Shown here: positions 1-44,950 of the stretch, piece by piece
Layout of the letters: every line of letters begins with the position of its first letter
Position numbering within the stretch: position 1 is the stretch's first letter
Assembly: GCA_033812795.1 (NCBI GenBank)
Contig: JAPXSY010000008.1
Location: 12,496 to 76,495 of the forward strand
Source: Kiritimatiellia bacterium
Lineage (GTDB): Bacteria > Verrucomicrobiota > Kiritimatiellia > RFP12 > UBA1067
Reading direction: 5' to 3'
Length of the DNA: 64,000 nucleotides
Position numbers and translations under genes: made by a program
Notes under the pieces: model-generated
The model's database searches: none
Seen by the model: the letters and a program-made list of their open reading frames with translations, nothing else
Told to the model about the DNA's origin: nothing

Positions 1-274
1 TCCCACATCGTGACGAGGCGAATCTCGTCGGGATTCACCGTCTCGCCGAAGTCGACCACGCAGTCGACCCATCCGGCACCCGACTGGATGTCCGCCATGG
101 ACGAGACAAGGAGCGGAGCCCGGCGCGCCCAGTCCGTGTTCCACCACGGACGCGTCGCCGCGCTTGACAGATACATCTTGTTCGTCACACCCGACACCGG
201 CACATCCAACGCGGTCTTCGCCTCAACCGAACCGGCGGCAAGAACGGCAGCGATCACCAACTGTTTCACCCTGC
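1..274 (-). CDS. 5' (N-terminal) portion of a fourth paralog of the giant GH42-like secreted protein; the gene continues beyond the window start
   Basis: The reverse complement of bp 1-274 reads MMKGRVKQLVIAAVLAAGSVEA...PWWN...VVDFGETVNPDEIRLVTMW. This is collinear with the N-termini of the paralogs at 299..4201, 6990..10820 and 41108..44950. A signal peptide is present. The start ATG lies at 274 (or 271), 24 bp downstream of the stop of the preceding paralog. Confidence 0.6.
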
Positions 275-298
275 CCTTCATCATCCTTTTCCTTTTCG

Positions 299-3200
299 TC
301 ATTTCACGCTCTCTCCGATGCCGCCGACGAAGAACCGCGCCTTCTTCGCGTGCTCGTCAACCGGCATACCGATGAACCACGAGAGGATCACGTTGCCGTA
401 GGTCTTCGTCTCGTACCAGTCGTTGAAGGAGCGGCTGTTCTGGTTGAAGACGACCTTGCCGGCGCCCAAAACCTTGTCCTGAATGACGAGTTCGGCCGCC
501 GACGGATCCCGCGCCGTGCGGAACGGCGCAAGCTGCGTTTGCGGATCCCACTTCGTGAAGGCGAGCGAATACTGCCCGCCGTCGGCCTCGAGCCGCTGGA
601 CGCCATAGCGCGGCTTTGTCTCGTTCGTCGCGTAGTACGGGTGGTTCGTCGGGAACGTCTCGTCCCACGCCGGTGCACCGTCGCCGATGCCGCGTTTCGC
701 CGTCGGGTACGGGTCGAAGACACCGATCTCGGCGAGGAACCGGCGCGCGGCGGGCCCCGTGCCGTTCCTGTCGAAGAGGAGACCGCCCCCGCGCCGGAGA
801 AGAGCCTTCAGTTCCTCGGCGCAGTCCGCGAACGCCGCGTCGCAGTCCTTCGGATTGGCGCTGAAGTGGACGTAATGCGCCGTCTTGAGCGCTGCGGCAA
901 ATGCCTGCGCCGAATAGGTCTTCACATCCGTGTTGTTCGAGCGCCACACATCGAGGTCGTCGACCTTGAGTGTGCGGCAGAGCGTCGCCTCGTCCGTGAC
1001 GAAGCGCCGGCGTTCGATACCCGCCAGGCGCGAGCGCGTGATGCCGGCCGCCTTTGCCTTCGCGCCCTCGCCGCGGACGGACGTGAACTCGACCGCCACG
1101 TACGGCCGGAACGCGGGATCGGGATTCTCCGGCGGCTTCTGACCCGCCGGCCGGACGCTCGCGAGCGCCGCCCCCATCCACGCAGCCTCCTGCGCGGCAG
1201 GAATCGCCGTGAACGCGTCGCCGCCGATCAGGTAGAAGCCGCACTGCCGTGGCCCAACCGCAATCTCGAAGCCATTGGTGAAGGGGAAGCGCACGCCCTT
1301 CTTCACGTCGAGAACATACGACGGACTGCCGACGTAAAGCGTCACCTTCCCCCTGTCTTCGGTCTTGCCCTTGTTGTAAACGCCGAGGAACATCCCCTCT
1401 TCACCTGCCTGAAGGATGCCGTCGAGAGACTTCGACGCAATCTCGAACGGAGCGACGCCGCCGACGGACGCGACGAGCGCCTTCACACGCGCGATCGCCT
1501 TCGCATCGCCCTTCATCATCGGATCGGTGAGAACCTCCTTCGTCCAGACGATCCGGCCCTTGCCGAGTTCGATGACCTTCCCGTCCTCCCAGCCTTTCAC
1601 CTCCTCAACGTTCAGTCTTTCACCCGTACTCCCCTCGATCACCGCGCCGCCGCCTGCCTTCACGTAGGCGACGAGCTCTGCCGCGAGGGCTTCCGGGAGA
1701 ACCTCATCGTCGGTGAGATAGACGGCCTTGTAGCGAGCGAGCGAGCCGGCCTTGAAATGCGGATTGATGACGACATCGTAGTTGTAGCTCAAGATCTCCG
1801 CGAACGCATTGACGCGCGCGTCGTGGCGCGAGGCATGCCACCAGTCGCGCGGCATCGTACGGTACTTGCGGCAGTCCTCCTCGAAGCAGGCCATGTCGCG
1901 CAGGACGGCGAGGTTCTTCACCGGGGCCATCTTCGCGACCTTCGGCCCGAGCTTCGTGTAGAGCGCGAAGCGGTTGAAGTCGGCCGTGATCTCGAAGAGG
2001 TCGCGGTCGAAGTTTTCGTACGTCATCGACTCCTGCGAGAACCCGTTGATCCCGCAGATGAACGGCATCTCAAGCTGACCGATGCGGTGGGCGTAGTCCT
2101 TTGTCATGTTGTAGTAGTGGGCGTGAATCGTGTGTCCGTCACGGTTGTCGAAATAGCCCCTCAGGCGTTTGGCCGTGTGCTTGATCTTCGAGAGATTCAT
2201 GCCCGCGACGAATTCACAGAAGAGCGTGTCCATGACGCCGGGGTAGTAACCCATGCACATGTCGCGTTCAAGCTCGCTGTTCTCGGAGTTGAAGACCATC
2301 ACCTTCGTGCCGGGATTGACCTTGTGCGAATACTCGTAGAACGCCTTCATGTATTCGCCGCTCAGACGGCGCGAGGCGAAGAACGGCTCGGGGTCCGGCC
2401 ACTTCCAATAGGCCCTGCCGAACTTCTTGAGGTCGTCGTCCGGGAACTCGACGCCTTCGCCGCCGCCGAGCGCGTTGAAGGTCGAATCGACGCCGCACAT
2501 CGGGTAGAGGGCCTGCATCTCGCGGCAGAGGGCCTGCTCCTCGGCGTCGAACTTGCCGCCGTAACTGAAGCCCGGCAACGCGTCGTGCCATGTGCAGACG
2601 GCCAGTCCGTTCGAGTGGGCCTCGGCGCAGATGCGCTTCAGAAGCCGCCCGTCGTAACCGCCCTTCCATTCGGGAGCCTTCCATGACGGGTTGCGCGCCT
2701 TCTTGTGTGCGCAGAGTCGGTCGAAGAGGTCCTTCGAGATCGGGAGCGACGTCCAACTGTAGTCCGTCAACTGCCCCAGAAGGATCGTGTTCGCGCCAAG
2801 TGCGCGGATGTGCGCGATGATGTTCGGCGCCCACTCGTCGCCGGGAAGCGGCGTGGACGAACGCCAGCCGCCGACGTTGACGTTGACGCAGAAGTCACGG
2901 TCCAGAACCGGAACCTTCACGGGGATCTCTCGGTACGACTCGGCTTTCGCGACGAAGACCTTCGGCGGATGCGTGAGCCAGGCGTAGAGGGTGGCGACCG
3001 TCCGCGCCTCGCCGACTGTCGCGACGAGCGCGCCCGATCCCGTGACGGGCGTCTTCCCCTTCGGCGCGTGGTTGAAGTTCAGCGAAACATACTCGCCGCT
3101 CGACTGCCCCTGCCCGATGTAGGAGACGCCGCCCAGAGCCCGGCGGTCGAAGACCATACCGACGACATCGCGATTCCGACGGTCAGTGATCGCGTACCAG

Positions 3201-4201
3201 CCTTCCGAGAGCCACGGGAAGCGGTAGTATTCGGGCTGCGGCATACAGTCCGTCACATGATCGAGCGCCGCGCGGAACGTGAGGAGCTGGCCCGAAAGGC
3301 CACGGTAGGTGAAGTCATCGTGGCCACAGTCGCCGCCGCACGCCCACGAAACATCGATGCGCGCGTTGTGGAGACCGTCCTTCAGACGGTAGACATAGTC
3401 GACACGCGGCTGGCCCGCGTAAAACGTGAAGTCGAGCACGGCGTCCTCGTTCGTGAAGGTCACGGTTTTCCTGAAGGCGTTGTCGGCGGTGATCACCGCC
3501 TTCGACCACGGTTTCGGGGCCCTTCCGGCAGAGAACTCAAAGCCCCGCCAGGCGAAGCCCGTCGTGCGCCACAGGAGTTCGCTCGGTGCCTGCGAGGCAT
3601 TCACCTTCAGCTTCTTCATGAGGCCGTCCGTGCGGCGGAGGTTGTCGAAGACGACCTCGATGATGCCGTTGTTGACACGCACCTCGTCCTCGCGGCACGA
3701 GAGCGTCATCGGCGAGTCGATCCCCTGCGTCGGCGCGTCGGGATTGCCCCAGTAGATGAAGAACGGCCTGTTCTCGCGTTCGCGGAGCGACGTCTCGAAG
3801 AGGAGCCGGAGCGCGGTTGGCGCGACCAGGGCGGGGACGTCCCGGCTACGTGCTGTGATCAGCGCGCCCTCGCCCTGACGCACCGGTTCGGCGACGCACG
3901 GCACCGCGGTCCCCCACGGCGTCACCACGCGGACGGACTTCGCTTCAACCGCCTCGCTGACGTCGAAGATGAAATCGATCATCGCGCGCTCCTCGCGGAC
4001 ATCCGACATGTTCGAGACGAGAATCGCCGCACGGCGTTTCCAGGCCCTGTTCCACCAGGGGCGCTCCGGCATGTCGGCGAGGTAGACCCTGTTCGAGACC
4101 GCCGCGACCGGCACATCGAGAATGTCAAGCGCGGACGCGGACGCCCCGATCAGAATCGTCGACAACGCAAGAACGGCATGACTGAAGTTGAAACTTCTCA
4201 T
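299..4201 (-). CDS. giant secreted multidomain protein, paralog A; putative glycoside hydrolase with GH42-like architecture (TIM barrel plus beta-galactosidase-trimerisation/GATase1-like domains)
   Basis: Uninterrupted ~1300-codon ORF. The likely start is the internal Met (MRSFNFSHAVLALSTILIGASASA signal peptide) with an AAAGGA RBS. Conserved blocks are shared with three other paralogs (PWWNRAWKRR, VVTPWGT, IYWGNPDA, QPRVDY, ITADFNRFALYTKLG, NDWYE). The 'YKAVYLTDDEV..VKAGGGAVIEG' block resembles the GH42 trimerisation domain. Family assignment is by motif recall only. Confidence 0.6.
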   Translation of the reverse strand: MRSFNFSHAVLALSTILIGASASALDILDVPVAAVSNRVYLADMPERPWWNRAWKRRAAILVSNMSDVREERAMIDFIFDVSEAVEAKSVRVVTPWGTAVPCVAEPVRQGEGALITARSRDVPALVAPTALRLLFETSLRERENRPFFIYWGNPDAPTQGIDSPMTLSCREDEVRVNNGIIEVVFDNLRRTDGLMKKLKVNASQAPSELLWRTTGFAWRGFEFSAGRAPKPWSKAVITADNAFRKTVTFTNEDAVLDFTFYAGQPRVDYVYRLKDGLHNARIDVSWACGGDCGHDDFTYRGLSGQLLTFRAALDHVTDCMPQPEYYRFPWLSEGWYAITDRRNRDVVGMVFDRRALGGVSYIGQGQSSGEYVSLNFNHAPKGKTPVTGSGALVATVGEARTVATLYAWLTHPPKVFVAKAESYREIPVKVPVLDRDFCVNVNVGGWRSSTPLPGDEWAPNIIAHIRALGANTILLGQLTDYSWTSLPISKDLFDRLCAHKKARNPSWKAPEWKGGYDGRLLKRICAEAHSNGLAVCTWHDALPGFSYGGKFDAEEQALCREMQALYPMCGVDSTFNALGGGEGVEFPDDDLKKFGRAYWKWPDPEPFFASRRLSGEYMKAFYEYSHKVNPGTKVMVFNSENSELERDMCMGYYPGVMDTLFCEFVAGMNLSKIKHTAKRLRGYFDNRDGHTIHAHYYNMTKDYAHRIGQLEMPFICGINGFSQESMTYENFDRDLFEITADFNRFALYTKLGPKVAKMAPVKNLAVLRDMACFEEDCRKYRTMPRDWWHASRHDARVNAFAEILSYNYDVVINPHFKAGSLARYKAVYLTDDEVLPEALAAELVAYVKAGGGAVIEGSTGERLNVEEVKGWEDGKVIELGKGRIVWTKEVLTDPMMKGDAKAIARVKALVASVGGVAPFEIASKSLDGILQAGEEGMFLGVYNKGKTEDRGKVTLYVGSPSYVLDVKKGVRFPFTNGFEIAVGPRQCGFYLIGGDAFTAIPAAQEAAWMGAALASVRPAGQKPPENPDPAFRPYVAVEFTSVRGEGAKAKAAGITRSRLAGIERRRFVTDEATLCRTLKVDDLDVWRSNNTDVKTYSAQAFAAALKTAHYVHFSANPKDCDAAFADCAEELKALLRRGGGLLFDRNGTGPAARRFLAEIGVFDPYPTAKRGIGDGAPAWDETFPTNHPYYATNETKPRYGVQRLEADGGQYSLAFTKWDPQTQLAPFRTARDPSAAELVIQDKVLGAGKVVFNQNSRSFNDWYETKTYGNVILSWFIGMPVDEHAKKARFFVGGIGESVK

Positions 4202-4269
4202 GATGAATCCTTTGGTTCCCGCAATGAAGATTTCCATTGCGGGCGATGTGATACCGAGACCACCCGGGA

Positions 4270-6975
4270 TCAGTGCACACGCAAGATGAATCCGTTCACC
4301 GCCTGATATTCGGCGCAACCGATGTCGGGCAGACCGTTCTGCGGGCTAATGCGCGGTTGCGCATTGTTGCGCGTGACGATCACGCCGACGTCCATCGTTT
4401 TGCCGCGCACGGAAATCGTCGCCGCCGGCGCTTCGCTCCAGGTTCCGTCGCCCATGTCGAGCGGCCCGTCCTTCGCTCCGTCGCCCATCCAGTCCAACTT
4501 CAGGCCGTTGTCGACCAGAACGCTCGCTTTCCTGCCGATGCGCCATTCGCCGTTTTCCGCATCCGCATAGAACGGCTCGCCGTTCGCCGCCGTCAGGTTA
4601 TGGTAGTCGCCCGGCGTGAGGCCCGTGCCGATCTCGTCGTAGCAGTACGATACCTTCGTCGAGACGTTCTTGAACTTGTCCGGAATACCGGGCTTGTCCT
4701 CGTTCTCGCCGTTCTTCCAGAAGACGCAGTTCGTGAAGGCCATCTTTTGAACCGTCCCCGGAACCGAATAGTCGAGCGCCGTGCACCAGACCGCCCCGCG
4801 CGACACATGGTTCTTCACGAACGTGCAGGCCTCCGCCACACAGTCGGCCTTGTTCGTCTCGATCGAGCCGCCGAGGACGCACGCGCCCGTGTTATTTGCA
4901 AAGAAACAATTTTGCAACACGCTGCCGGTGTCGTAGGACCCGTAGAAGACCGTTCCGTAGCTGTTGTTGGCGTTGTCGCCCCCGATGTTGCGGACAAACC
5001 AGCAGTCACGGACGACAGCGCCGCCACCGCGGAACTCGATCGCGCCAGACCCGCACCGATCACTACTGTCCGTTGACCAGTTCGCGTCGAAGACGACGTT
5101 GGAGACGAGGCATGCACCGTTCAGGAAGAAGCCGCCTCCGTGGGTGTTGTACGACCCGTTACCGCGCACGACGCCGCCAAGGAACACCCCCGCTTCGATC
5201 ACGCCCGCGCCGCCGCCCGCGTCCCAGTAGGTCCCCAGATTCCGGTTGCCCTCCAGAAGGCAGTTGACAGCCCGTTGCGACGCGTTTCGCAGGTAGAGGC
5301 CGCCACCCGGATACGCGCCCGACCAGGCGAAGAACACCGTATTGCTGGAGATCGTGCAGTCAATGACGGCCGACGCCGACTCCAAGTTGACGCCTGCGGC
5401 AGAGCACGGGGCGGAATTGCCCGTGACGAGCGAGCGGGAAAGCGTCGACGCACCCATTAGCGCGACGCCAGCGCCATGGCTGACGTTGCAGCTCGACGTC
5501 TGCTTCGGCCCGTTCGTGATCATATTGTTGTGAATGTAGCAGTCGGTCGCCGACGATTCGTTGAGCATCAGGCCGCCGCCACGGAAAGCGCCGGTCGCCC
5601 ACCACATCGATTCGCACATCTGGTTGTTGACCGCGAGGCAGCCGCTGACCTCAAGGCGCGAAACGGTCGAGCGCTCGGCGTAGACGCCGCCGCCGTAGAA
5701 CGCCGTCTTGCCCGTTGTGTCCATGTCGTTCGAGATGACGCAATCCTTCACGAGCGCGTCGACGAGCGTCGACTTGTAAAGATAGACCCCGCCGCCGCGC
5801 AGAGCCTTCTCCACGCCGCCGTTGACGCAGCCGCAGACGATCATGTTGCTCGCGACCGAACCCTCCGCGATGAGCGCGAGGCCGCCGCCGCAGTACGTCG
5901 TTCCGTTCACGTAGTTGGTCGCGTTCCTCACCGTCAGCCCCGAAACGGAGATGCCGGAGCCCTTCACAACGACGCCCGCCGATGTTCCGCCCGCGTCGAT
6001 CACCGTCGCCTCGGCATCGTCCGAGTCGCCGAAGAGCCGGGTGTTCGTCATCTCCATCAGGAGGGGCGAGGTGATCCGGTAGACGTGCGGCGCGGCCTTC
6101 GTCCCGCCCGTCACCTTGATCCGGTCGGTCGGGAACGCGGCGGCAACCGTCGCGACGAGCGCCGTGCCCGCCTCCTCGTCTGTATCGTAATCGGCGCGGT
6201 CGACGACACGCACGTTGGACGGTACGGAAGGATCGGTCGCGAACGCCGTCGCGCCACAGTTCGGCCAGAATTTGGCGTCCACCGTATCATAAAAGCCGAA
6301 GTACTTCGTCGGCACCATCGCGTTGTCATCGCGCGCCGGCACAAATTCGTGGATCAGCGTTCCGTTCGCGTCGTACGCGCGCAGGTAGTAGATGCGGCCC
6401 GCCATGCAGTTGTTGGCGCCGAAGGTCGAAGAAGGCGAAAGCGAGTTGCCCAGCTCGTGCCTGCAGAAGATCGCGAGCGGGCTCCCCGCCGTGAACGAAG
6501 TGTGCTCGCGCGTGTTCCAGCGTTCCCCGTCATCGACGCACCACTTCTTGAGTTCAACGTTGACGTCGACCTCGTAGTCGGTCAGAAGATCGGGATAGAA
6601 AAACGGCGCGGAGGACGGCGCGGCCCAGCCGCCCGTCCAACACTGAAGGGCGCCCGGGAGATTCACGCGGTTGTTGCCGCCCTGCCCGAAGCTGAGACAG
6701 TAACCTTTGTCATTGGTCGCTGTGCCGCGTGCGCAGAAGACACCGGGCGAGTTCCAAGTGCCGACCTGATTGACGCGGAACTTGCAAACGATACGGTGAT
6801 TCCATTCCGGCACATAGTCCGTATAGACCCACTGGCCGCCGTTGTAAGTCGATTCGACATACGGCAGCTCGGTGTAGCCGCCCGGCAAGGCCGCAGGCGT
6901 CACATCACCGAAAGCTGGCAGAAGACGAGCCCCTGTCAACGCACAAGCCGTCAGCAACAACATGTGTTTCATCAT
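4270..6975 (-). CDS. secreted parallel beta-helix protein with Pmp-type repeats (GGG[LV]...FxxN) and an N-terminal lectin/LamG-like domain; C-terminal 'PDIGCAE' tail
   Basis: 907-codon ORF with signal peptide MMKHMLLLTACALTGARLLPAFG. It contains more than 10 repeats of GGG[LVAF] followed by [FL]xxN, the pattern of polymorphic-membrane-protein/right-handed beta-helix repeats. The first ATG (6993) overlaps the stop of the upstream gene as ATGA, while the RBS (GAAAGGAAG) favours the downstream ATGs at 6975/6972. Confidence 0.55.
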   Translation of the reverse strand: MMKHMLLLTACALTGARLLPAFGDVTPAALPGGYTELPYVESTYNGGQWVYTDYVPEWNHRIVCKFRVNQVGTWNSPGVFCARGTATNDKGYCLSFGQGGNNRVNLPGALQCWTGGWAAPSSAPFFYPDLLTDYEVDVNVELKKWCVDDGERWNTREHTSFTAGSPLAIFCRHELGNSLSPSSTFGANNCMAGRIYYLRAYDANGTLIHEFVPARDDNAMVPTKYFGFYDTVDAKFWPNCGATAFATDPSVPSNVRVVDRADYDTDEEAGTALVATVAAAFPTDRIKVTGGTKAAPHVYRITSPLLMEMTNTRLFGDSDDAEATVIDAGGTSAGVVVKGSGISVSGLTVRNATNYVNGTTYCGGGLALIAEGSVASNMIVCGCVNGGVEKALRGGGVYLYKSTLVDALVKDCVISNDMDTTGKTAFYGGGVYAERSTVSRLEVSGCLAVNNQMCESMWWATGAFRGGGLMLNESSATDCYIHNNMITNGPKQTSSCNVSHGAGVALMGASTLSRSLVTGNSAPCSAAGVNLESASAVIDCTISSNTVFFAWSGAYPGGGLYLRNASQRAVNCLLEGNRNLGTYWDAGGGAGVIEAGVFLGGVVRGNGSYNTHGGGFFLNGACLVSNVVFDANWSTDSSDRCGSGAIEFRGGGAVVRDCWFVRNIGGDNANNSYGTVFYGSYDTGSVLQNCFFANNTGACVLGGSIETNKADCVAEACTFVKNHVSRGAVWCTALDYSVPGTVQKMAFTNCVFWKNGENEDKPGIPDKFKNVSTKVSYCYDEIGTGLTPGDYHNLTAANGEPFYADAENGEWRIGRKASVLVDNGLKLDWMGDGAKDGPLDMGDGTWSEAPAATISVRGKTMDVGVIVTRNNAQPRISPQNGLPDIGCAEYQAVNGFILRVH

Positions 6976-6989
6976 CCGCTTCCTTTCTG

Positions 6990-9900
6990 TCATTCCGATA
7001 AAGCAACGCCGATGCCGCCGGCACGTTGCAAGGACTTCTTAGCGTGTTCTTCGATCGGCCGGCCAACGATCCAGCCGAGCAGCGCATCTCCGAACGCGCG
7101 GTTCTCGTACCAATCGGAGAACGCGAACCTGTTCTCGAGGAAGACGACGCGGCCCGTGCCGAGGACGTTCTCCTGAAGGACGAAGACGGCCACATCGTGA
7201 TTGCGTACCATCCGGACGGGGGCGACCTGACGCGCGGCATCCCACTTCGCGAATGAGCGCTCGGTGGCCTGAAACCGGCCGAAGCCGCCCTTCTTCACGG
7301 CGAGATTCCCGGCGAACGGATGGTTCGTCTCCGATGTCCAGACCGTGTTCTCGTCGCCCAGCTTCGGCGCGGGATGCGCGTACGGGTCGAAGACGCCGAT
7401 CTCCTTCAGAAACGCGCGCGTCTGCGGTCCGGCCGGGGAGCGGTCGAAGAGGATCGTCCCGCCGCGCTTCAGGAGCGCTTTCAGCTCGTCGGCGCAACTG
7501 ACGAAGACGTCGTCGACGGTCTTCTTTTCATCTGCGGAAAGCGTGCCGAGCGAGGAGAAATGGATGTAGGTCGCTGTTGAGAGGGCCCGGGCGAGGACGG
7601 GCGGATAGCAGTCGGCCGGCGTCACGGGCGTCACATCGATCATCGCCTCGCGCGAACGGCGGATCGCGGTCGGGTTTCCCTTCCCATCGCCGCGCGTGAA
7701 TTCGACAGCCTTCGCCGGGACGAACGAAGGGTCATCGTTCACCTGGGCCGGGATTCCGTTCGGACGCGCGGCGGCAACCGCAGGGCCGTTCCAGACGGCC
7801 GTCTTCGTTTCGGGAACCGCCGTGAACGTTTCATCGCCGATCAGGTAGAAGCCGCACTGTCGCGGCCCGATCGCGATGTCGAAACCGTTCGTGTAGGGGA
7901 AGCGCACACCCGTCTTCACGTCGAGGACGTAGAGAGAAGGTCCCGACCTCAACGCTTTCGCGATCGTCACCCGTCCCGCGTCGGCCTTGTCGCCCGCATT
8001 GTGGACACCGAGCAGCATTCCGTCGGAACCGGACTGCAACACACCGTCGAGCGACGAAGCGCCGTCTATGCGGTGCGGCATCGGCCCGGCCAGAGCCTCG
8101 ATGGCGGCGGCAACCTCGCGAATCGTCTTCTCATCCCGTTTCGCAAGTCCGTCCGTCCGGACTTTCTCATACCAGAGGATCTTACCCTTGCCGAGCGGCG
8201 TGATCACGCCGTCCTTGAGGCCAAGCGACTTGATGACGGTGTTCCCGGCGGTTTTCGCTTCGAGAATGGCCGTTCCGCCAGCCTTCACGTAGGCGACAAG
8301 TTCCTTGGCGAGCGCGTCCGAGAAGACGTCGTCCTCCGGCACGTAGACGATCCGGTACTTCGCCAGCGCCTTCGCCGTGAAGAACGGGTTCATCACAAAG
8401 TCGAAGTCGAGGTTGCGGATCTCGCCCAGTGCGCGGCAGCGGCCATCCTGCTCGGCACGGTTGAAGTAGGGCCGGTCTTTTGGCTGTCCGTGACGGCCCT
8501 TGCGGATGTCCTCGCGGTAGCAGACGGAATCGCGGAAGACGCCGAGGTAACGGACGGGCGCCATCCGCGCGGCCTTCTCGCCGAGGCGCGTATACTCGGC
8601 GAAGCGGTAGAAGTCGGCCGCGATCTCGCTCTGTTCGCGCGAGAAGTTCTCGTAGCTCTGGTTCTCGTGGCTGAAGCCGTTCACGCCGCATATGAACGGC
8701 AGCTCGATCTCCTTGATGCGGTGCATCGCGTCCGGCTTCATGAAGTAATAGTGGTGATGGACCGTCCGCCCCGCTTCGTTGTCGAAGAGCGCACGCATGC
8801 GCTTGGCGACGTGCTTGCAGCGCGAGAAGTCGAGCCCCGAGAGCATCTCGACGACGACCGTGTCGAAACTGCCGATCTGCTCGGACATGAAGATCTCACG
8901 GCTCAGTTCGCCGTTCTCCGAATTGTAGACGAGAACCGGGAGGTCCGGCCGCGCCTTCTTCGCCGCGTCGTAGAACGCCTTGACGAGCACGCGGGCCTTG
9001 TCCTGCCAGGCGAAGAATTCGTCTGGGTCCTTCCAGTTCCAGTAGTCGTTGTGCTTCTCGCGCTTCACGTCCTGGGGCAGGATGACCTGCTCCTGGCCCT
9101 CGAAGTTGTTGTAGATGACGTCCACGCCGCCGACCTCGGCCATCCGGAGGTGCAGATCGAGCGCCGTCCTCTGGATATCGGCGTCGAACTTGGTGTCGAA
9201 CTCGCGCCCGTACATACCGGGGATGAAGTCACCGCACTGCTTGACGACGAGTCCCTTCGCGTGCGCGGCGTTCGCCATCTCGAGGAAGTCCGTGCCGCGA
9301 TACTGATCCGGATCCCAGCCCGTGAAACGCTTGCGGCAGTCCGGTGCGACGAGCGGACGGTTCGCCTGCCGCTCGAGGTCGCGGTAGAGCTTCTCCGTCA
9401 GCGGCATGTCCCACCAAAAGTACCCGCCGACGCGGATACCCGTCACCCCGTACGACCGCAGGTGGTCGACGATGTTCGACGCCCACGCCGGATCCGGCAG
9501 CGGCTTGCCCGACCGCCAGCCGTGGCCCGAATCCTTGCCACAGTTGATATCCGCGATGAAGTCGCGGTCGAGGCGCGGCCGCACGTACGGATATTCCGCG
9601 TACGGCTGCGCCGCACCGACGGACACCGTCAGCGGCGTTTTCCGCCGCAGGTATTCGCGCCGCACGTCGAGCGCCTGGCCCGGAAGCGCCACGAGCGAAC
9701 CCGAACCGGTCACCGGCGCGTCCTTCCGCGCCTTGTGCGCAAAGGTAAGGCGCGTCCATTCGCCGAAGGCCTGTCCGCTGCCGTTATACCAGAGCCCCTG
9801 CAGCGCGGGACGGTCGAAGAGAAGCCCGCAGACGCTGGGCGACCGCTTCGAGGCGATCGCGTACCAACCTTCGCCGAACCACGGCGCCATCTCGAAGCGG

Positions 9901-10820
9901 GGCTGCGGGATCGAGTCGGTCGGGCTGTCCAGCGCAGCATCGAACGTGAGGAGCCTGCCGGTCGCGCCCGGATAGACGAACTTGTCGTAGGCGACGCCGC
10001 CGCCCACCGCCCAGGCGACGTTGAGTTCGCAGCGGTCGCCCTTCTTCAGCGCGTACGCCCAGTCGACGCGCGGCTGGTCAGCGTAGACCGAAAGCGTGAC
10101 CGCGCCGTTCGTCCCCTCGAAGCGGACGCGCTTCACGAAGGCGTTGTCCTCGGTGACGACGCCGTCGGACCAGTCCGTCGCGCCGCCCAACGTCATCTCA
10201 AGCCCGTTCCACGCCCACTGGGTCGCACGCTCGAGCAGCTCATTCGAGGCGTCCGTGCCCATGATGCGCAGCTTCCTGAGGAATCCGCCCGTCACATGCT
10301 TCTTGTCGATCGTGACATCCAGCACGCCATTCAGAATGCGCACCTCGTTCGCAGTCTCGGACATCATCAGCGCCGTTACCGGTGTCTCGCGCTTCGCCGC
10401 CGGATTGCCCCAGTAGACGAGGAACGGCTTGTTCTCGTGGATCCTGAGCGGCGTCTGGAAAAGCAGCCTGACGGCCGCAGGTTCTTGGCCTTGACCTTCC
10501 GCTTTGCCCTTCTCGCAAACGCACGGCACGACCGTCTCCCAAGGCGTCACCACGCGCACTTCGTCCGGGTTCACCTTCTCGCCGAAGTCGACCACGCAAT
10601 CGACGACCGCCTTCGGCTCCGGGACATCCGCATGGGAAGAGACGAGAATCGGCGCGCGGCGCTTCCAGGCCGCGTTCCACCACGGGCGGGAGGCCATGCC
10701 CGTCAGATACGCCGTGTTCGTGACGCCCGCGACCGGCACGTCGAGAATCGTTTTCATCCCCGCTTCGACGCACGGCAGAACAGCCGCGAGCGCCAGCCCC
10801 ATCGCCAGACTTCTCTTCAC
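6990..10820 (-). CDS. giant secreted multidomain protein, paralog B (GH42-like architecture)
   Basis: ~1320-codon ORF. The probable start is GTG 10820 or ATG 10802 (signal peptide (V)KRSLAMGLALAAVLPCVEAG). The annotated ATG at 10961 would overlap the upstream gene. It carries the same conserved blocks as paralogs A, C and D. Confidence 0.6.
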   Translation of the reverse strand: MKRSLAMGLALAAVLPCVEAGMKTILDVPVAGVTNTAYLTGMASRPWWNAAWKRRAPILVSSHADVPEPKAVVDCVVDFGEKVNPDEVRVVTPWETVVPCVCEKGKAEGQGQEPAAVRLLFQTPLRIHENKPFLVYWGNPAAKRETPVTALMMSETANEVRILNGVLDVTIDKKHVTGGFLRKLRIMGTDASNELLERATQWAWNGLEMTLGGATDWSDGVVTEDNAFVKRVRFEGTNGAVTLSVYADQPRVDWAYALKKGDRCELNVAWAVGGGVAYDKFVYPGATGRLLTFDAALDSPTDSIPQPRFEMAPWFGEGWYAIASKRSPSVCGLLFDRPALQGLWYNGSGQAFGEWTRLTFAHKARKDAPVTGSGSLVALPGQALDVRREYLRRKTPLTVSVGAAQPYAEYPYVRPRLDRDFIADINCGKDSGHGWRSGKPLPDPAWASNIVDHLRSYGVTGIRVGGYFWWDMPLTEKLYRDLERQANRPLVAPDCRKRFTGWDPDQYRGTDFLEMANAAHAKGLVVKQCGDFIPGMYGREFDTKFDADIQRTALDLHLRMAEVGGVDVIYNNFEGQEQVILPQDVKREKHNDYWNWKDPDEFFAWQDKARVLVKAFYDAAKKARPDLPVLVYNSENGELSREIFMSEQIGSFDTVVVEMLSGLDFSRCKHVAKRMRALFDNEAGRTVHHHYYFMKPDAMHRIKEIELPFICGVNGFSHENQSYENFSREQSEIAADFYRFAEYTRLGEKAARMAPVRYLGVFRDSVCYREDIRKGRHGQPKDRPYFNRAEQDGRCRALGEIRNLDFDFVMNPFFTAKALAKYRIVYVPEDDVFSDALAKELVAYVKAGGTAILEAKTAGNTVIKSLGLKDGVITPLGKGKILWYEKVRTDGLAKRDEKTIREVAAAIEALAGPMPHRIDGASSLDGVLQSGSDGMLLGVHNAGDKADAGRVTIAKALRSGPSLYVLDVKTGVRFPYTNGFDIAIGPRQCGFYLIGDETFTAVPETKTAVWNGPAVAAARPNGIPAQVNDDPSFVPAKAVEFTRGDGKGNPTAIRRSREAMIDVTPVTPADCYPPVLARALSTATYIHFSSLGTLSADEKKTVDDVFVSCADELKALLKRGGTILFDRSPAGPQTRAFLKEIGVFDPYAHPAPKLGDENTVWTSETNHPFAGNLAVKKGGFGRFQATERSFAKWDAARQVAPVRMVRNHDVAVFVLQENVLGTGRVVFLENRFAFSDWYENRAFGDALLGWIVGRPIEEHAKKSLQRAGGIGVALSE

Positions 10821-10848
10821 CCCATTCCGCGTCCCTGTTTCCCGATTC

Positions 10849-12837
10849 CTACTTGATATACATGACGTCGGCCGTACCGTAATGCTCGAACGCGCCGATG
10901 TCGGGAGCGTCCGCGCCGCCCGTGTAGCGCGGGTAACGTCGGCCGAATCTGACCGCGACACCGTAGTCTGCGACCTTTTCGATCATATAGGTGCCCGCAC
11001 CCGCATCGCACGCCGTCCAGTCAGCCGAACCGTCCTGGGTCTTCATCCAGTCGAGGACGAGCCCCTTCCCCCGGAGCGGCGACGCCCCGCGGAGCGTCAG
11101 GTTCGTCTCAGCGAGATTCCGGAACCCCGGCTCGCCGACGATCGTTCCCGCGAGGTTGCCGTTGAGGATGTTGCCGTCCCCGTCCTTCGGGAGCGTCGTC
11201 GCGACCTGATCGTAGCAGTTCGAGACATGCTCCGGCTTGTCGGTCGCGAAGGCCGGCGGGAGGCCGCCGTTCTTGTAACCGTGGAAAAGCGTGTTGCGGA
11301 CGACGACATTCGTCTCGCGCTTACTCCCCGCTCCGATGGCGTAGTATTCCGTGTCCGAGGCGACAAAGGTGCAGTTGTCGATCTCCGGCCCGGTGGCGGT
11401 GTAAGACGAATAGAACGGGCACGACCCCGTGTTCCCGACGAAGACGCAGTTGCGGATGTGCGCGCGGTAGGTTGGAAGAGGCGAACCGTCGAACTGAAGG
11501 ACCGCCTTGCCGTCCGTCACCGTGTGATTGACGAACCAGCAGCTTTCGAACACGAACGGGGTCGAACCGCCGCGCTGGACACGCGCGGCCTTCCCCTCGC
11601 CCCACTTTCCCGTCGCATTCGCCTCGAAGACGCAGTTCGAGAACCAGCCCGCCGAACCGCCCGTGAGCCATCCTCCTCCGCCGCCGCCGGAGGTGTTCCG
11701 GTGGAAGACGCACCCCGTCGCCGCAGGCCCCCCCGTGCCGGCGCCGCCCGATCCGACGGCTTCGTTGTCAATGATCAACGAGTCGCGCAGACCGCCCGAG
11801 GGATAGTTGATGTGGAAGACTCCGCCGGCATCGCCGTACGAATAGTTGTTCGAAACGGTCGATGTGCAGAAAAGTCCGGCGCCCTCGATCGCCACGCCGC
11901 CGCCGGAGGCGTTGCCGCTCGTGTTCGTCACGCATTTTTGGCATGTGTTCAGGTAAACGAGCGAATTGCTGACGATTCCACCGGTTCCCACGTAGAGCCC
12001 CCCGCCATAGCAGCGGGAGCTGTCATCCGTCGGCCGGACCCAGTTGTGGTGGACGCGGCAATTGTCGACGATGCCCGCGTCGCTCACATACAGGCCGCCG
12101 CCCACGAGTGCTCCCGTACCGCCGCCGACCGACATTGTCTCGGTCGAACAGTTCCGCACCTCGCAACGATAAGCGCGCGATGGCGTATCGGTGCCCCAGG
12201 CTTTGCCACCGATGAAAAGTCCGGCGCCGGCGCCCGTGACCTTCTGCTTCCTATCGTTGAACATCCAGCAGTTCTCGATCAGTGTGTCGAGGACGAGCGA
12301 GCTGCCGTTCGCGTAAACGCCCGCACCGCCGAACGCGGTCATCTCGGCGACGGCTGTGCCCGTGAGGTAGTCGGTACGCGTATCGAAGTGGCAGCCGGTC
12401 ACGACGCAGTTCGAGACAACGGCCGAGCTGCCGTTCACATGGATCCCGCCGCCGCGGTACCACTTGCGGGAATCGACCAGATAGGAGAGCCCGTTCGTCA
12501 CCGTGAGGTTGCAGGCGAGCGTATCGGTGCCGCCCACATAGAGGATATTGGTCATGCCGTTGCCCGTGAGGACCGTGTCGCGCGGATTCTCCGTCGAGCC
12601 CCTCAGCGTCAGCGAGCGCGTGAGCCTGATCGGCCCGAGGCCGTCGGCCGAGACATCGTAGTGCGTCGGGGACGCCTGCAGGACGATGGTCGAGCCATCC
12701 GGCACGTTCACCGTATCGGCGATCGCCGCGCGCAGATCGGTGACCGACGCCACGTTTATTTCGACCGCCGAAGCGGCGAAGGCGAGCAATCCGCAGCCGA
12801 GCGCCGGAAGAACACGAATCACGTTTGTCTCTTTCAT
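10849..12837 (-). CDS. secreted Pmp-repeat parallel beta-helix protein; C-terminal 'PDIGAFE' tail
   Basis: The ORF has an internal start at MKETNVIRVLPALGCGLLAFAASAVE (signal peptide) with an AGGAG RBS 7 nt upstream. It has GGG[IV]...N repeat periodicity throughout. It is paralogous to 4270..6975, 20623..22704 and 22718..24646. Confidence 0.55.
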   Translation of the reverse strand: MKETNVIRVLPALGCGLLAFAASAVEINVASVTDLRAAIADTVNVPDGSTIVLQASPTHYDVSADGLGPIRLTRSLTLRGSTENPRDTVLTGNGMTNILYVGGTDTLACNLTVTNGLSYLVDSRKWYRGGGIHVNGSSAVVSNCVVTGCHFDTRTDYLTGTAVAEMTAFGGAGVYANGSSLVLDTLIENCWMFNDRKQKVTGAGAGLFIGGKAWGTDTPSRAYRCEVRNCSTETMSVGGGTGALVGGGLYVSDAGIVDNCRVHHNWVRPTDDSSRCYGGGLYVGTGGIVSNSLVYLNTCQKCVTNTSGNASGGGVAIEGAGLFCTSTVSNNYSYGDAGGVFHINYPSGGLRDSLIIDNEAVGSGGAGTGGPAATGCVFHRNTSGGGGGGWLTGGSAGWFSNCVFEANATGKWGEGKAARVQRGGSTPFVFESCWFVNHTVTDGKAVLQFDGSPLPTYRAHIRNCVFVGNTGSCPFYSSYTATGPEIDNCTFVASDTEYYAIGAGSKRETNVVVRNTLFHGYKNGGLPPAFATDKPEHVSNCYDQVATTLPKDGDGNILNGNLAGTIVGEPGFRNLAETNLTLRGASPLRGKGLVLDWMKTQDGSADWTACDAGAGTYMIEKVADYGVAVRFGRRYPRYTGGADAPDIGAFEHYGTADVMYIK

Positions 12838-15271: not shown

Positions 15272-17158
15272 ATGGGCAGGTTAACGGTTGCGGCGGTGTC
15301 GGTTTGGGTGGCGGGCGTGTGCATTTCTGCGCAATGTTCCAGCGCGCTTTACGGTGCGGACGCGGGGAGTTCTCCGCGCGGAGGCGGTGGGTGTGACGCC
15401 TGGTATTATCCGCAGATGAGCATGGAGTTGTACCGGCTCGAAGAACTGAAACGGAATGCGCAGGCCGCCGGGATGTATGTGGGATATCCGGGCAGCGTGC
15501 CCCCGTACGCGGCAGCCGTAGAGTTCCGGCGTCGTTTCAAGCCAGGCGAAACGCGCGAATATTTCACGCACGGACGCGCGTTCAGCGAAAACTTCGACGA
15601 AAAGACCGGCATGCTCCGTGTCTCGGTGAGCGCACGGTATCTCGACACGCCGGCATTGCGCAGTCCGCTCAAGGGTTGGGAGGCGAGGGTGTCCGGTCCG
15701 CAACGGGACGACACGTGGCGCGCTGCCGCGCGTTATTCCGGCGGCGAGGTGCCGCCGCATTTAAGGTGGCTTGAAGAAGATCACGACTATCGGGATTTGA
15801 AGAAAATCGGGGATTATTACGACACGCAAAGGGAATTGCTTGCCTATGTGCAGACAAGTGGGGAAAAGCCGCCGAAACTTTTTGTCGGCGAATCCGTGCC
15901 GGAAATGAGGAATACGGTCCCGGTCGATTCAGAGCAGGCGACAGACATGGTGTTGGTCGCCAACGACACGTGGCGATCCAGGTCCGCGCTCGCGCTCAGA
16001 TATTTTCGCTTTGAGGGAAAAGCCGAAAAGGTCAAGGTGATCCCGCTGTGGTGGCCGGGCATGGAGGAAAAAGGAACGTTTTCCGCGAAGGATAAACGTC
16101 ACGAGAAAATGCGCGAGGTGGGGGTCCACACGCTCAAGCTTTGCTGCCACGACTTTTTGATCGACGGCATCAAACGCGACCGTCTGCCGTGGGGAGGTGA
16201 TCTCACGGTGTCGCTGATGGCGAATGCGTATGTTCTGGGTGACCCGGAAATCTCCCGGCGCTCGCTTTCTGTGCTGGACGCATACACAACGGACGTGAAC
16301 GGCATCGTGACCTATTCGATGTGGCTGATCATCGCGCACGATCTGCATCAGCTTTATTTCGCGGACCGCGAATTTCTGGAGGCGCGTTGGTGGCGGATCA
16401 AGCAACGCATCGAAGACCTGATTTCCCGCACCGATGAAAACGGCTTTGTCGCAAGAGGGCTCGACTGGGTGTTCATCGATTGGGCTGGTCCAAGGTCCGC
16501 TACCGCACTAGGGATGATATGGACAGGAGCACTTGACGCGGCGGCGAAGCTCGCCGGGCGCATAAACGACCCGCGTGCCGCTGAGTACCGTGCGCTTTGC
16601 GACAAAGTGAAAGCGAACCTCAACCGTCTCGCGTGGGACGAAGGGCGCAAACTTTACCGCGTCGATCCGTTTGAGAAGAATTCGGGGTTTGCGCGTCAGG
16701 CCAATATTTACGCGGTGATCTTCGGCGTGGCCCAGAATGAACGGGCGCAGGCGATCGGCGACGAACTCGCCAAAGATGACTTGCCGGCGGTAGGCACGCC
16801 TTACGTGTTCGGATGGGAACTTGTGGCCTTGGCGCGCACCGGACACCATAAGGAGTTTTTCACGGGCATGGAAACCGTGTTCGGCGCGATGCTTGATGCG
16901 GGCGCGACGAGTTTCTGGGAAGGGTTTAACGCCAAACAGAAAGGCGATGAGCGATATCGTTTTTACGGGCGGCCGTGGGCGAAAAGCCTTTGCCACGCAT
17001 GGAGCGCGTGGCCCGCGTTCATTTTCGTTTCCGAGGCGATGGGGGTTAAGCCCACATCGGACGGCTGGAAAACGCACGAGGTAAAGCCCATTCCCGGAGC
17101 GGAGGGGATGAAGGCCGATATCCCCACGCCATCCGGGCGCACAAAGATAGGGCTCTGA
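15272..17158 (+). CDS. GH78-like alpha-L-rhamnosidase catalytic (alpha/alpha)6 domain protein
   Basis: The ATG at 15272 gives signal peptide MGRLTVAAVSVWVAGVCISAQ; the annotated upstream start adds an Arg-rich non-native extension. 'KRDRLPWGGDLTVS' and 'ATSFWEGFN...SLCHAWSAWPAFIF' correspond to the 'DCPxRE..GWTGD' and 'TTFWESW' blocks of the confident GH78 at 52373..55606. Confidence 0.5.
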   Translation: MGRLTVAAVSVWVAGVCISAQCSSALYGADAGSSPRGGGGCDAWYYPQMSMELYRLEELKRNAQAAGMYVGYPGSVPPYAAAVEFRRRFKPGETREYFTHGRAFSENFDEKTGMLRVSVSARYLDTPALRSPLKGWEARVSGPQRDDTWRAAARYSGGEVPPHLRWLEEDHDYRDLKKIGDYYDTQRELLAYVQTSGEKPPKLFVGESVPEMRNTVPVDSEQATDMVLVANDTWRSRSALALRYFRFEGKAEKVKVIPLWWPGMEEKGTFSAKDKRHEKMREVGVHTLKLCCHDFLIDGIKRDRLPWGGDLTVSLMANAYVLGDPEISRRSLSVLDAYTTDVNGIVTYSMWLIIAHDLHQLYFADREFLEARWWRIKQRIEDLISRTDENGFVARGLDWVFIDWAGPRSATALGMIWTGALDAAAKLAGRINDPRAAEYRALCDKVKANLNRLAWDEGRKLYRVDPFEKNSGFARQANIYAVIFGVAQNERAQAIGDELAKDDLPAVGTPYVFGWELVALARTGHHKEFFTGMETVFGAMLDAGATSFWEGFNAKQKGDERYRFYGRPWAKSLCHAWSAWPAFIFVSEAMGVKPTSDGWKTHEVKPIPGAEGMKADIPTPSGRTKIGL

Positions 17159-20591: not shown

Positions 20592-20625
20592 CATAATAGG
20601 TGGTGATGGGGGGAGATTCATCATG
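20592..20625 (+). promoter_or_regulatory. candidate anti-Shine-Dalgarno hairpin occluding the RBS of the 20623 beta-helix gene
   Basis: CCCTCCCCCA ... 15 nt ... TGGGGGGAGA, then ATTCATC and ATG. The C-rich arm is complementary to the G-rich SD. A second CCCCCTCCCCC run lies at 20528-20545. Confidence 0.35.
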
Positions 20626-22704: not shown

Positions 22705-22717
22705 AATAAGAGGAGTG

Positions 22718-33382: not shown

Positions 33383-33457
33383 GGCGTTCGCATCGCACTC
33401 CTGTCTGTGTATTGCGGCAGAGCGATGGCCGCATGGATACTCAACCACTGAAACAAT

Positions 33458-35353: not shown

Positions 35354-35397
35354 AAGGTGCTGGCGGAGAACGATTGCGACGGCTTCGGGGAGGTAAA

Positions 35398-37884: not shown

Positions 37885-37906
37885 CAAAAGGACATTCTTG
37901 AAAGTC

Positions 37907-39412: not shown

Positions 39413-39448
39413 TCTCTGGCAAGGTATTCAAAACAACGTATTGGGAGT

Positions 39449-41041: not shown

Positions 41042-41107
41042 ACGGTGCCGCCATTTTTTACCCCGGCGAGGATTGTGCACCGGGATGGAGAATGGTAACA
41101 TTATTCG

Positions 41108-44100
41108 ATGAATGTCGAAAAGGTCGTGGCGACCGTGGCGATTGCCGCGGGTGTGTGCTTTGCGGCGAATGCCGCAGAATGGAAGACGCTTCGGGACCTG
41201 CCGGTTTCGGCGGTAGGGAATGCGGCGTATCTGACGTCGATGACGGAGCGGCCGTGGTGGAACAAGGCGTGGACGCGGCGGACACCGATTCTGGTGTCGT
41301 CCGCGGCAAAAGCGTCGTGCGGCAAGATCGTGGTGGACGCTGTCGTCGACTTCGGGGAACAGGTGAACCCCGCCGAGGTGCGTTTGGTCACGCCCTGGGA
41401 AACCGAGGTTCCGTGTTGGGTCGAGGCGAAGGAAGGGACGAAACTCGAACTCTACTTCGAGACCGACCTGCGCATCGAGGAGAACCGCCCCTTCCTCGTC
41501 TACTGGGGCAATCCCGCGGCAAAGGCGCCGGACTTGTGGCCGACGATGACGATGCGGGTGAATGACGAAGAGGTGCGCATCGCGAACGGCGTCCTTGACG
41601 TCACCTTCGATAACCTTCACCGCACCAGCGGTCTTCTGAAGAAAATCCGCGTTCTGGCGTCCCAGACGCCGAATGAACTCCTCGACCGCGCCTCCGGTTT
41701 TGCTTGGGACGGTTTTTCGCTCCGTTCCGGCGCCGCCGAACCGTGGTCGAAGGCCAAGGTCGTTGCGGACAATCCCTTCAAGAAGCAGATCCGCTTCGAC
41801 AGCAAGAAGGTTACGCTGGACTTCACGCTTTACGCCAATCAACCGCGTGTGGACTACGCCTACACGCTCAAGCCAGGCAATGAACAGGCGAACATCAGCA
41901 TCTCATGGGCCTGTGGCGACGGGACGGGGGAGGACGATCTTTTCTATCCCGGCCTCGCGGGCAAGGTGCTGTCGCTCCGCGCTTCGCTCGACCATGCGAC
42001 GGACTGCATTCCCAACCCCCACTACGAGGGGCTGGGGAAGTATCTGGCGGAGGGCTGGTACGCGATCCGTGACCGCAAGCAGCATGAGGTCGTTGGCATG
42101 ATCTTCGACCGCCCCACTCTCGCATCCTTCGATTACAGCGGCGCGGGACAGTACGCGGGCGAGCGCTCGGTCATGACCTTCCGCCACCAAACCGAAAAGG
42201 ACAGGCCCGTCGGCGGTTCGGGTGCGCTCGTCGCGCTGATGGGCGGGGTGGACGATGTGCGGAATGAGTACCTGCGCTACTGTAAAGCGCCGATCATCTC
42301 CGTCGGCAAAACCGAGGCATACCGCGAAATCGCGGTGCGGCGTCCGCGGATTGACCGCGACTTCTGTGCGGACTATAACATCGGCAAGGGCGCAGGCGCG
42401 GGATGGGAGTCCGGCGAGCCGCTCGAAGGTGGCGAGTGGTGTTCGAACATCGTCGACCGCGTCCGTTCGCTCGGCGGCAACATCGTGCGCATCGGCGGCT
42501 ACGGGTGGCAGGATCTGGCGATCACGAAGGAACTTTACGACCGGATCGCGAAGGTGTGGGCCCTCCCGACCTCGCGCTCCAGGAATCGGAAGATGCCCGA
42601 GTGGCAGGAGGGTCAGTACACCGGTGAGAAGTTCCGCCAACATTGCGCGGCCGCGCATGCGAAGGGCGTGGCGGTCAGCCTGTGGTCCGGCTTCGTCCCC
42701 GGCGTCGGCTTCGACAATGACATGCTCTGGGACAAGGATGCGCAGGAGCTCGATACCGAGCTTCAGTGCCTTTACGCCGACCTCGGGGCGGACATCATAT
42801 ACAACGCCATGGCGTGCCGCGAGGGCGCGCATATTCCAACGGACGTCATAAAGGGACGCGGTACCTCGTGGTGGCTCTGGGACGATCCGCGCGACTTCTT
42901 TAAGACCGAGGATATCCGCACCGAGGCTATCAAAAAGTTCTACCGCGATTGCAAGCGGCGTCATCCGGACACGCCGGTCGTCGTCATGAACTCCGAATGC
43001 TCGATCATCGAGCGCGAGACCATGATGACGGATCAGGTCGGCGCGTTCGACTCCGTCTATTGTGAGATGCTCCCGCTCTGTGACAATCCGCGCACTCTGC
43101 CGCATACGAAGATGGCGGTGAAACGCCTGCGGGCGCTTTACGACAACGAGGCGGGACGGACCGTCCACGCTCATTTCTACTACTACGGACACGATTGCGT
43201 GCAACGCATCCTGCAGGTCGAGCTTCCCTACGTCTGGGGCATCAACGGCTTCACCTTCGAGAACCTCACCTACGAGAACTTCGGTAAGGAGCAGCCGAAT
43301 ATCACGGCGGACGCCTACCGCTTCCTAGAATACACCAAGCTCGGCGACAAGGTCGCAAGGATGGCGCCCGTGAAGGATCTCGCCGTCTTCCGCGACAACC
43401 GCGCTTACGTTGACGACGTCATCAACCACCGCCGCGGCAAGCCGTATGCCTACAGTACGCAGCAGGACGGACGCGCCAACGCCATCGCGGAGATCCGCAA
43501 CTGCGTCTATGACATCGTGATCGATCCGTTTTTCACCGCCAAGGCGCTCGCGAAATACCGCGCCGTCTACGTGCCCGAAGACCTTTCCTTTGGCGAAGAC
43601 CGCGCGAAGGAGCTGATCGGGTACGTGCAGGCCGGCGGCGGTGCCATTGTCGAGGGCCGGACCGTCGAGGGTAACGGTCTGTCGAAGCTCGGGCTTACGG
43701 ACGGGAAGGTGACGGATCTCGGCAAGGGCAAAATCGTCTGGCTCAAAGACGTTCTCACCGACCGCCTTGCGCGTCGCGACGCGAAGGCGTTCGCGCAGGC
43801 AAAGGAGCTGATGGCGTCTGTCGGCTGCCTCGCGCCGTTCACGCTTCCGTCCAAGACGCTCGATGCCAACCTTCAGATTTCCGAAGAAGGCATGTTCCTC
43901 GGCGTCTTCAACGATGGCAAGGAGGAAGACAAGGGGAGGGCGACCCTAAACCTCTCACACCTTCCAAACTTCTCGCACCTCTCAAACCCGCTTTACGTTC
44001 TCGACGTGAAGCGCGGCGTGCGTTTCCGCTATACGAATGGCTTCGAGGTTGTGGTGGGACCGGAGCAGTGCGGCTACTACCTCATCGGCGATGAGAAGTT

Positions 44101-44950
44101 CACAGCGCTGCCGGAGACGTCCGGCGGAGCATGGTTTGGCGCTTCCGCCTCACATGTCGGCGAACCTGGGAGGGGCTGCAAGATGCCGGTGCTCGACCGT
44201 TCCGAAGCGTTCCCGCGCGTCCATGCGCTGGAGTATGTGCGCGGTTCGGAGAAGAAGCCGACGATGATCCGCAGATCGATGCTGGCGGCGTTCGACATCA
44301 AGCAGGTCACACCCGATGCCTACGATCCCTCGCTGTTCGCCGCAGCCATCCGCAAGGCGACGTACCTGCACCTCTGCGCCAATGCCAAAGGCGCGGACCG
44401 GGCGTTCGCAGACTGCCCGGAGGAACTGAAGGCGATGCTCAAGCGCGGCGGAGCGATCCTTTTCGATCGTACGCGTCCAGGACCGAACGCGCAGAAGTTC
44501 CTGAAAGAGATCGGCGTTTTCGACCCCTATCCGTCCGCCAAGACCAAGATCGGCGACGGGAAATCCGTATGGGACGAGACCTTTCCGTCCAACCACCTCC
44601 TCTCGGCCTTCAACCGTGTTAAGGAGGGTTATTTCGGCAACGATTTCATCCGTCGGCTCGGCAGGGACGGCGGCCGTTACAATCTGGCGTTCGGCCAGTG
44701 GGATGCGGAGACACAACTCACGCCATTCCGCGCCGCGCTCAACAAGGATTACACGCACCTTATCATTCAGGAGCACGTGCTCGGCGCAGGCAAGGTTGCC
44801 TTCAACGAGAACGCGCGCTCGTTCAACGACTGGTACGAGTCGAAGATGTATGGCGACGCGCTCCTGTCGTGGCTCATCGGGATGCCGGTCAAGGACTATA
44901 AGGACAAGGCCGAACGCTACAATGGCGGACCCGGGAAAGCGGTGGAGTGA
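41108..44950 (+). CDS. giant secreted multidomain protein, paralog C (GH42-like architecture)
   Basis: 1280 aa with signal peptide MNVEKVVATVAIAAGVCFAANA. It has the same conserved blocks as paralogs A, B and D. 'YRAVYVPEDLSFGEDRAKELIGYVQAGGGAIVEG' is the trimerisation-like block. Confidence 0.6.
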   Translation: MNVEKVVATVAIAAGVCFAANAAEWKTLRDLPVSAVGNAAYLTSMTERPWWNKAWTRRTPILVSSAAKASCGKIVVDAVVDFGEQVNPAEVRLVTPWETEVPCWVEAKEGTKLELYFETDLRIEENRPFLVYWGNPAAKAPDLWPTMTMRVNDEEVRIANGVLDVTFDNLHRTSGLLKKIRVLASQTPNELLDRASGFAWDGFSLRSGAAEPWSKAKVVADNPFKKQIRFDSKKVTLDFTLYANQPRVDYAYTLKPGNEQANISISWACGDGTGEDDLFYPGLAGKVLSLRASLDHATDCIPNPHYEGLGKYLAEGWYAIRDRKQHEVVGMIFDRPTLASFDYSGAGQYAGERSVMTFRHQTEKDRPVGGSGALVALMGGVDDVRNEYLRYCKAPIISVGKTEAYREIAVRRPRIDRDFCADYNIGKGAGAGWESGEPLEGGEWCSNIVDRVRSLGGNIVRIGGYGWQDLAITKELYDRIAKVWALPTSRSRNRKMPEWQEGQYTGEKFRQHCAAAHAKGVAVSLWSGFVPGVGFDNDMLWDKDAQELDTELQCLYADLGADIIYNAMACREGAHIPTDVIKGRGTSWWLWDDPRDFFKTEDIRTEAIKKFYRDCKRRHPDTPVVVMNSECSIIERETMMTDQVGAFDSVYCEMLPLCDNPRTLPHTKMAVKRLRALYDNEAGRTVHAHFYYYGHDCVQRILQVELPYVWGINGFTFENLTYENFGKEQPNITADAYRFLEYTKLGDKVARMAPVKDLAVFRDNRAYVDDVINHRRGKPYAYSTQQDGRANAIAEIRNCVYDIVIDPFFTAKALAKYRAVYVPEDLSFGEDRAKELIGYVQAGGGAIVEGRTVEGNGLSKLGLTDGKVTDLGKGKIVWLKDVLTDRLARRDAKAFAQAKELMASVGCLAPFTLPSKTLDANLQISEEGMFLGVFNDGKEEDKGRATLNLSHLPNFSHLSNPLYVLDVKRGVRFRYTNGFEVVVGPEQCGYYLIGDEKFTALPETSGGAWFGASASHVGEPGRGCKMPVLDRSEAFPRVHALEYVRGSEKKPTMIRRSMLAAFDIKQVTPDAYDPSLFAAAIRKATYLHLCANAKGADRAFADCPEELKAMLKRGGAILFDRTRPGPNAQKFLKEIGVFDPYPSAKTKIGDGKSVWDETFPSNHLLSAFNRVKEGYFGNDFIRRLGRDGGRYNLAFGQWDAETQLTPFRAALNKDYTHLIIQEHVLGAGKVAFNENARSFNDWYESKMYGDALLSWLIGMPVKDYKDKAERYNGGPGKAVE

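Follow-up and report, generated by a model that had tools for sequence, protein, structure and literature searches.

A gut or digester Kiritimatiellia bacterium carries several copies of a gene for a secreted giant protein of ~1,300 residues, which probably founds a new family of sugar-degrading enzymes, since it is multi-copy, rare, unannotated and very distant from GH42, apparently lacks the GH42 nucleophile and recurs beside one type of beta-helix protein. The giants are thus a candidate new CAZyme family of the GH42 superfamily with a conserved beta-helix partner. With modest confidence, we favour the explanation that they are secreted seven-module CAZymes, remote from GH42 and GH164, which would cleave a heteropolysaccharide together with the beta-helix proteins. 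The window, i.e. the whole stretch of 64,000 nucleotides that was analyzed, had originally been predicted to hold five family members. Four of these ORFs are true paralogues with 36-46% mutual identity, whereas the fifth (16963..20454, G3) does not belong to the family. The four paralogues are:

1..284, minus strand: G0, giant paralogue, N-terminal 94 codons, leaving the window at its left edge (BLASTP to the paralogue N-termini)
299..4201, minus strand: G1, giant paralogue of 1300 aa with a Sec-type signal peptide (MRSFNFSHAVLALSTILIGASASA); 43-46% full-length identity to G2 and G4
6990..10820, minus strand: G2, giant paralogue of 1276 aa from GTG 10820 (BLASTP), with the sole Pfam trace among the giants
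41108..44950, plus strand: G4, giant paralogue of 1280 aa (BLASTP), used for modelling

In BLASTP comparisons, G1 and G4 were 45.5% identical across 1318 aa, G1 and G2 43.0% and G2 and G4 45.2%, and the partial G0 matched the N-termini of G2, G4 and G1 at 62%, 55% and 41% identity, respectively. An alternative ATG start of G2 is present at 10802. G0 had been taken to start at 274, but its ATG was located at 284, 12 nt after the G1 stop and preceded by a AAAGGAAAAGG stretch. The complete G0 (1298 aa) was found in an independent assembly (L003, 13936-17832), and a further giant copy of 1283 aa lies with it just left of the window; the organism has at least five true family members. G4 is identical to the NCBI entry 'hypothetical protein P5125_04350, Kiritimatiellia bacterium'. 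Each of the collinear motifs quoted for the giants was recovered in at least one paralogue (PWWN in all four), and a family alignment of 39 sequences had a mean column identity of 47%. The family is small, with 93 representatives among 1.84 billion. As the array recurs at 99.8-100% protein identity in two independent assemblies (JGI 3300010365 and ENA ERZ764730) and the paralogues are so divergent from each other, the giants are not assembly duplications.

A confident AlphaFold model of G4 (pLDDT 86.5, pTM 0.73) showed, from N- to C-terminus, a signal peptide, a small beta-sandwich, a galactose-mutarotase-like supersandwich, a (beta/alpha)8 barrel, a GH42M-like alpha/beta domain, a beta-sandwich and a second alpha/beta domain:

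41276..42304, plus strand: N-terminal module, small beta-sandwich (~aa 57-133) and galactose-mutarotase-like beta-supersandwich (~aa 148-399)
42365..43372, plus strand: (beta/alpha)8 barrel (~aa 420-755), eight strand/helix units in the model
43379..44125, plus strand: GH42M-like alpha/beta 'trimerisation' domain (~aa 758-910) and beta-sandwich (~aa 918-1006), by profile, fold and HHalign
44222..44947, plus strand: C-terminal alpha/beta domain (~aa 1039-1280), by secondary structure in the model

The motifs PWWN and YWGNP fall in the small N-terminal beta-sandwich. The C-terminal domain, which harbors the motifs KRGGGILFD, GAGKVIF and DWYEN, is possibly a second GATase1/ThuA-like domain; its internal similarity to the GH42M-like domain is weak (34% probability), and its counterpart is N-terminal in distant relatives of ~1500 aa.

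The GH42 architecture that had been proposed for the giants is supported by the fold and by a broadened profile, although standard HMMs fail. G1 and G4 had no Pfam match, G2 matched Glyco_hydro_42M with 20.9 bits, below the cut-off of 25.8 (residues 863-906 of the long ORF), and neither NCBIfam nor PDB sequence searches gave a significant match. The family profile matched 7vkx, 5gsl and 6jow in the PDB at profile positions 786-839 with E 0.035-1.3. The best Foldseek match of the giant model was the GH42 enzyme 5e9a (E 2.8e-18, 773 columns), and 3tts, 4oif and the GH164 structure 6t5o (TMt 0.59) were among the other top matches. In HHalign, the broadened superfamily profile, made from 43 sequences, aligned to six real GH42 sequences with 97% probability (E 8e-11, 473 columns), as compared to 0.2% for its column-shuffled control. 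In this profile-profile alignment the giant barrel is collinear with that of GH42, with confidence 7-9 at beta2, beta3, alpha4/beta5, beta6, alpha7/beta8 and the M domain. The giants are therefore remote relatives within the GH42 superfamily.

The GH42 enzymes used for comparison were beta-galactosidases and alpha-L-arabinopyranosidases (Thermus A4 1KWK, Rahnella 5E9A, Bacillus 3TTS and Gan42B 4OIF). Their beta6 motif D..s.D.YP aligned with FD...E.xP of the giants with confidence 9, whereas identity in the structural alignment was ~10-13% and the Pfam model PF02449 was not matched by the giants. Unlike GH42 enzymes, which are typically cytoplasmic, the giants have signal peptides, and they carry an extra N-terminal module of ~400 aa and an extra C-terminal domain of ~240 aa. 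For GH35-type enzymes with a GH42M-like second domain (the Ignavibacterium beta-1,2-glucosyltransferase 7VKX and the Pyrococcus/Thermococcus exo-beta-D-glucosaminidases 5GSL/5GSM and 6JOW), the likeness was limited to the fold and the M domain, and their catalytic barrels were not alignable to the giants by sequence. It was described that GH164 and GH42 have exactly the core of barrel, GH42M-like domain and beta-sandwich in common, and that the GH164 beta-mannosidase Bs164 (6T5O, 681 residues) has its catalytic Glu160 on beta4 and Glu297 on beta7 (PMC7105311). Sequence similarity between Bs164 and the giants was not detectable.

Invariant polar residues of the family cluster in the barrel (G4 E572, D648, E653, N680, H689, E718, D735 and R738); residues were assigned from secondary structure and profile alignment. 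The acid/base Glu141 of GH42 was aligned to Ala569 with confidence 4, with Glu572 three residues further on, and Glu312 was aligned to the TVHHHYY strand of the giants with confidence 0-2. According to these low-confidence local alignments, neither the 'NE' acid/base motif nor the 'ME' nucleophile on beta7 is conserved in the giants, and the nucleophile position corresponds to an invariant His/Tyr-rich strand. Acidic residues (Asp or Glu) were absent from positions 682-695 of both G4 and the consensus, and also from the beta7 columns tabulated for the wider superfamily (685, 687-691). Since the giants do not keep the catalytic glutamates of GH42, the canonical glycosidase chemistry implied earlier is doubtful: the giants probably do not use canonical GH42 double displacement, and they could be non-hydrolytic or even non-catalytic. 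Candidate catalytic residues are E572 (after beta4), H689/Y691 (beta7) and E718 (beta8), although no more than roughly half to two-thirds of distant relatives, the alignments of which are uncertain, retain E572 and E718.

That the giants are nevertheless canonical retaining exo-glycosidases of clan GH-A, working by GH42-like double displacement with one Glu after beta4 (acid/base) and another after beta7 (nucleophile), and simply too divergent for HMMs, appears improbable. This would agree with the architecture and with GH42 and GH164 as best fold matches, and an alternative strand count, placing 'NSE' 628-630 on beta4, H689-x-Y691 on beta6 and the invariant E718 on beta7, resembles the clan GH-A signature. 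However, that count leaves no beta8 before the start of the M domain at ~residue 757, and E718 aligns (confidence 7) to GH42 Phe350 on beta8 and not to Glu312. Moreover, position 630 carries E in 28 of 39 family sequences and D in 10, with P, D or G prevailing in distant relatives, and, going by the model and the 1KWK topology, only the regular count would match the inter-strand spacings of GH42.

A GH42 fold with changed chemistry or lost catalysis is a tentative alternative. The giants might then act by a His/Tyr-based, lyase-like elimination, by a substrate-assisted or inverting mechanism or as transglycosylases, or serve as a non-catalytic scaffold that binds glycans and offers them to the beta-helix partner as substrate. 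The loss of 'NE', the position of the GH42 nucleophile in the invariant strand with T685, H689 and Y691 and the invariance of N680 in 31/31 aligned superfamily members point in this direction, as do the glycosyltransferase-type GH35 structures 7vkx/7vl3 among the closest architectures and the resemblance of the N-terminal module to that of the PL26 exo-rhamnogalacturonan lyase. On the other hand, the low local confidence at beta7 weakens the argument, strongly conserved acidic barrel residues are equally typical of hydrolases and, with respect to elimination, we know of no polysaccharide lyase with a (beta/alpha)8 barrel.

The following beta-helix proteins are encoded in the window:

4270..6993, minus strand: BH1, secreted beta-helix protein of 907 aa, conserved partner of G1-type giants (motifs, weak DUF5123)
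10849..12837, minus strand: BH2, secreted beta-helix protein of 662 aa with C-terminal PDIGAFE, upstream of G2 (motifs)
20623..24646, plus strand: D1 (20623..22704) and D2 (22694..24646), secreted BH-type paralogues, divergent from G3 (Pfam, motifs)

BH1 and BH2 begin, like G1, G2 and G4, with cleavable-looking Sec signal peptides. BH1 consists of an N-terminal domain of ~260 aa and unknown fold, a right-handed beta-helix whose rungs are of the GGG[LV] type, a region resembling DUF5123 (weak, E 0.0046) and a C-terminal PDIGCAE; several of its homologues have precomputed PF13229 Beta_helix matches. BH2 is 27% identical to BH1 across 675 aa, and both L003 and L007 contain its 662-aa gene call at 100% identity. 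D1 reached 35.2 bits for DUF5123 (cut-off 35.1) and weakly matched Pect-lyase_RHGA_epim, and D2 matched DUF5123 weakly. GGG[LVIA] rungs, FxxN and the C-terminal PDIG(C/A)(F/A)E were confirmed in BH1, BH2 and D1 (PDIGCFE), with VDIGCFE in D2. The four proteins thus resemble beta-helices of the pectate-lyase fold whose C-terminal region is similar to DUF5123, from which BH1 differs by its extra N-terminal domain; models of characterised lyase or GH28 families and PDB sequences were not matched.

The GGG[LV] and FxxN rungs recall chlamydial Pmp repeats, and the partners had been termed Pmp-type. Surface display, in which Pmp-like autotransporter or adhesin beta-helices would present or anchor the giants, is however very improbable: Chlam_PMP was found only in D2 (E 0.16) and was absent from BH1, BH2 and D1, an autotransporter beta-barrel or other anchor domain was not detected in the beta-helix proteins, and the PDIG(C/A)xE motif at their C-termini looks soluble.

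The minus-strand order of beta-helix (10849..12837), giant, beta-helix (4270..6993), giant, giant was confirmed, and the G2 stop overlaps the BH1 ATG in a real ATGA at 6990-6993, which suggests co-translation. The statement that four giants lie next to beta-helix proteins was overstated, as G1 and G2 are the only giants of the window that directly adjoin a beta-helix gene. G4 is flanked by a GH16+GDSL gene and X5:

44953..49008, plus strand: X5, downstream neighbour of G4, not a beta-helix (sequence; Pfam PKD and Golvesin_C only)

X5 comprises two tandem repeats of ~680 aa, each with an N-module, PKD and a Golvesin_C-like end. The N-modules carry HxxxD...HxH-like motifs and had no Pfam or PDB match. 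Homologues of X5 adjoin giants in L016 (63% identity), L015 and L009.

BH1 homologues with 38-45% identity directly adjoin a G1-like giant (50-51% identity to G1) in 3/3 further assemblies looked up (L015, L016 and L017), with differing flanking genes. The proposed giant/beta-helix cassette is therefore supported for the BH1/G1 subtype; across the family, adjacency is frequent but not obligatory. It is rather unlikely that the pairing as a whole is no functional cassette and only a by-product of polysaccharide loci that are densely packed with genes and often encode beta-helix proteins. The ~25 CAZyme genes of the window include five of the beta-helix type (BH1, BH2, D1, D2 and GH28), G4, G0 and the giants of L010/L012 have no adjacent beta-helix, and the giants of L001 and L008 lie two or three genes from the closest one; given the abundance of beta-helix genes in such loci, adjacency outside BH1/G1 may be background. 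Against a by-product speak the constancy of the BH1 subtype, with its 260-aa N-domain, beside a G1-type giant despite its sequence divergence, the ATGA overlap and the position of a D1 orthologue (36% identity) in L006/L013, where it has a giant on either side.

The giants lie in Kiritimatiellia polysaccharide-utilisation clusters rich in rhamnosidase-like, GH28, GH16 and GH127-like genes and acetyl-esterases. The window contains GH127M, two copies of Bac_rhamnosid6H, a full GH78, GH28, two GH16, DUF5696 and an MGH1-like gene together with three SASA esterases, AXE1 and GDSL, and other giant loci contain GH2, GH106, GH78, GH20, GH3, PIG-L and GDSL. In our favoured explanation, the giants would descend remotely from a clan GH-A glycosidase of the GH42/GH164 type, with a predicted core of (beta/alpha)8 barrel, GH42M-like alpha/beta domain and beta-sandwich. 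They would act outside the cytoplasm, cutting a glycosidic linkage in a complex heteropolysaccharide that is acetylated and contains rhamnose, and the paralogues may have diverged with respect to the linkages on which they act. The neighbouring beta-helix proteins, in part translationally coupled and above all those of the BH1 type, would perform endo-acting depolymerisation of the same polymer.

The ORF excluded from the family was characterized as follows:

16963..20454, minus strand: G3, LamG (Laminin_G_3), CARDB, remote GH42-like barrel and M domain, MG2-like end (Pfam, profiles)

G3 had no BLASTP match to the giants, and profile comparison gave a probability of 2-5%. Its supposed sharing of the giants' core applies to the 'trimerisation' domain and to a remote GH42-superfamily ancestry; with the broadened giant profile only this domain of ~120 residues aligned (90% probability), and no similarity was detectable beyond it. 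G3 and the giants thus have superfamily membership, alignable M domains and the locus in common, whereas the LamG and CARDB N-terminal module and the MG2 C-terminal module are G3's own. The G3 family (~1090 aa) is far larger and far more conserved than the giant family, with at least 566 clusters in Verrucomicrobia, Kiritimatiellia, Planctomycetota and Armatimonadetes and 53-93% identity among the best 120 listed. It is also nearer to GH42, as its profile matched GH42 with 93.6% probability (E 2e-7), PF02449 was matched in 4/20 members and Glu503 of G3 falls on the acid/base Glu141 of GH42 in the profile alignment.

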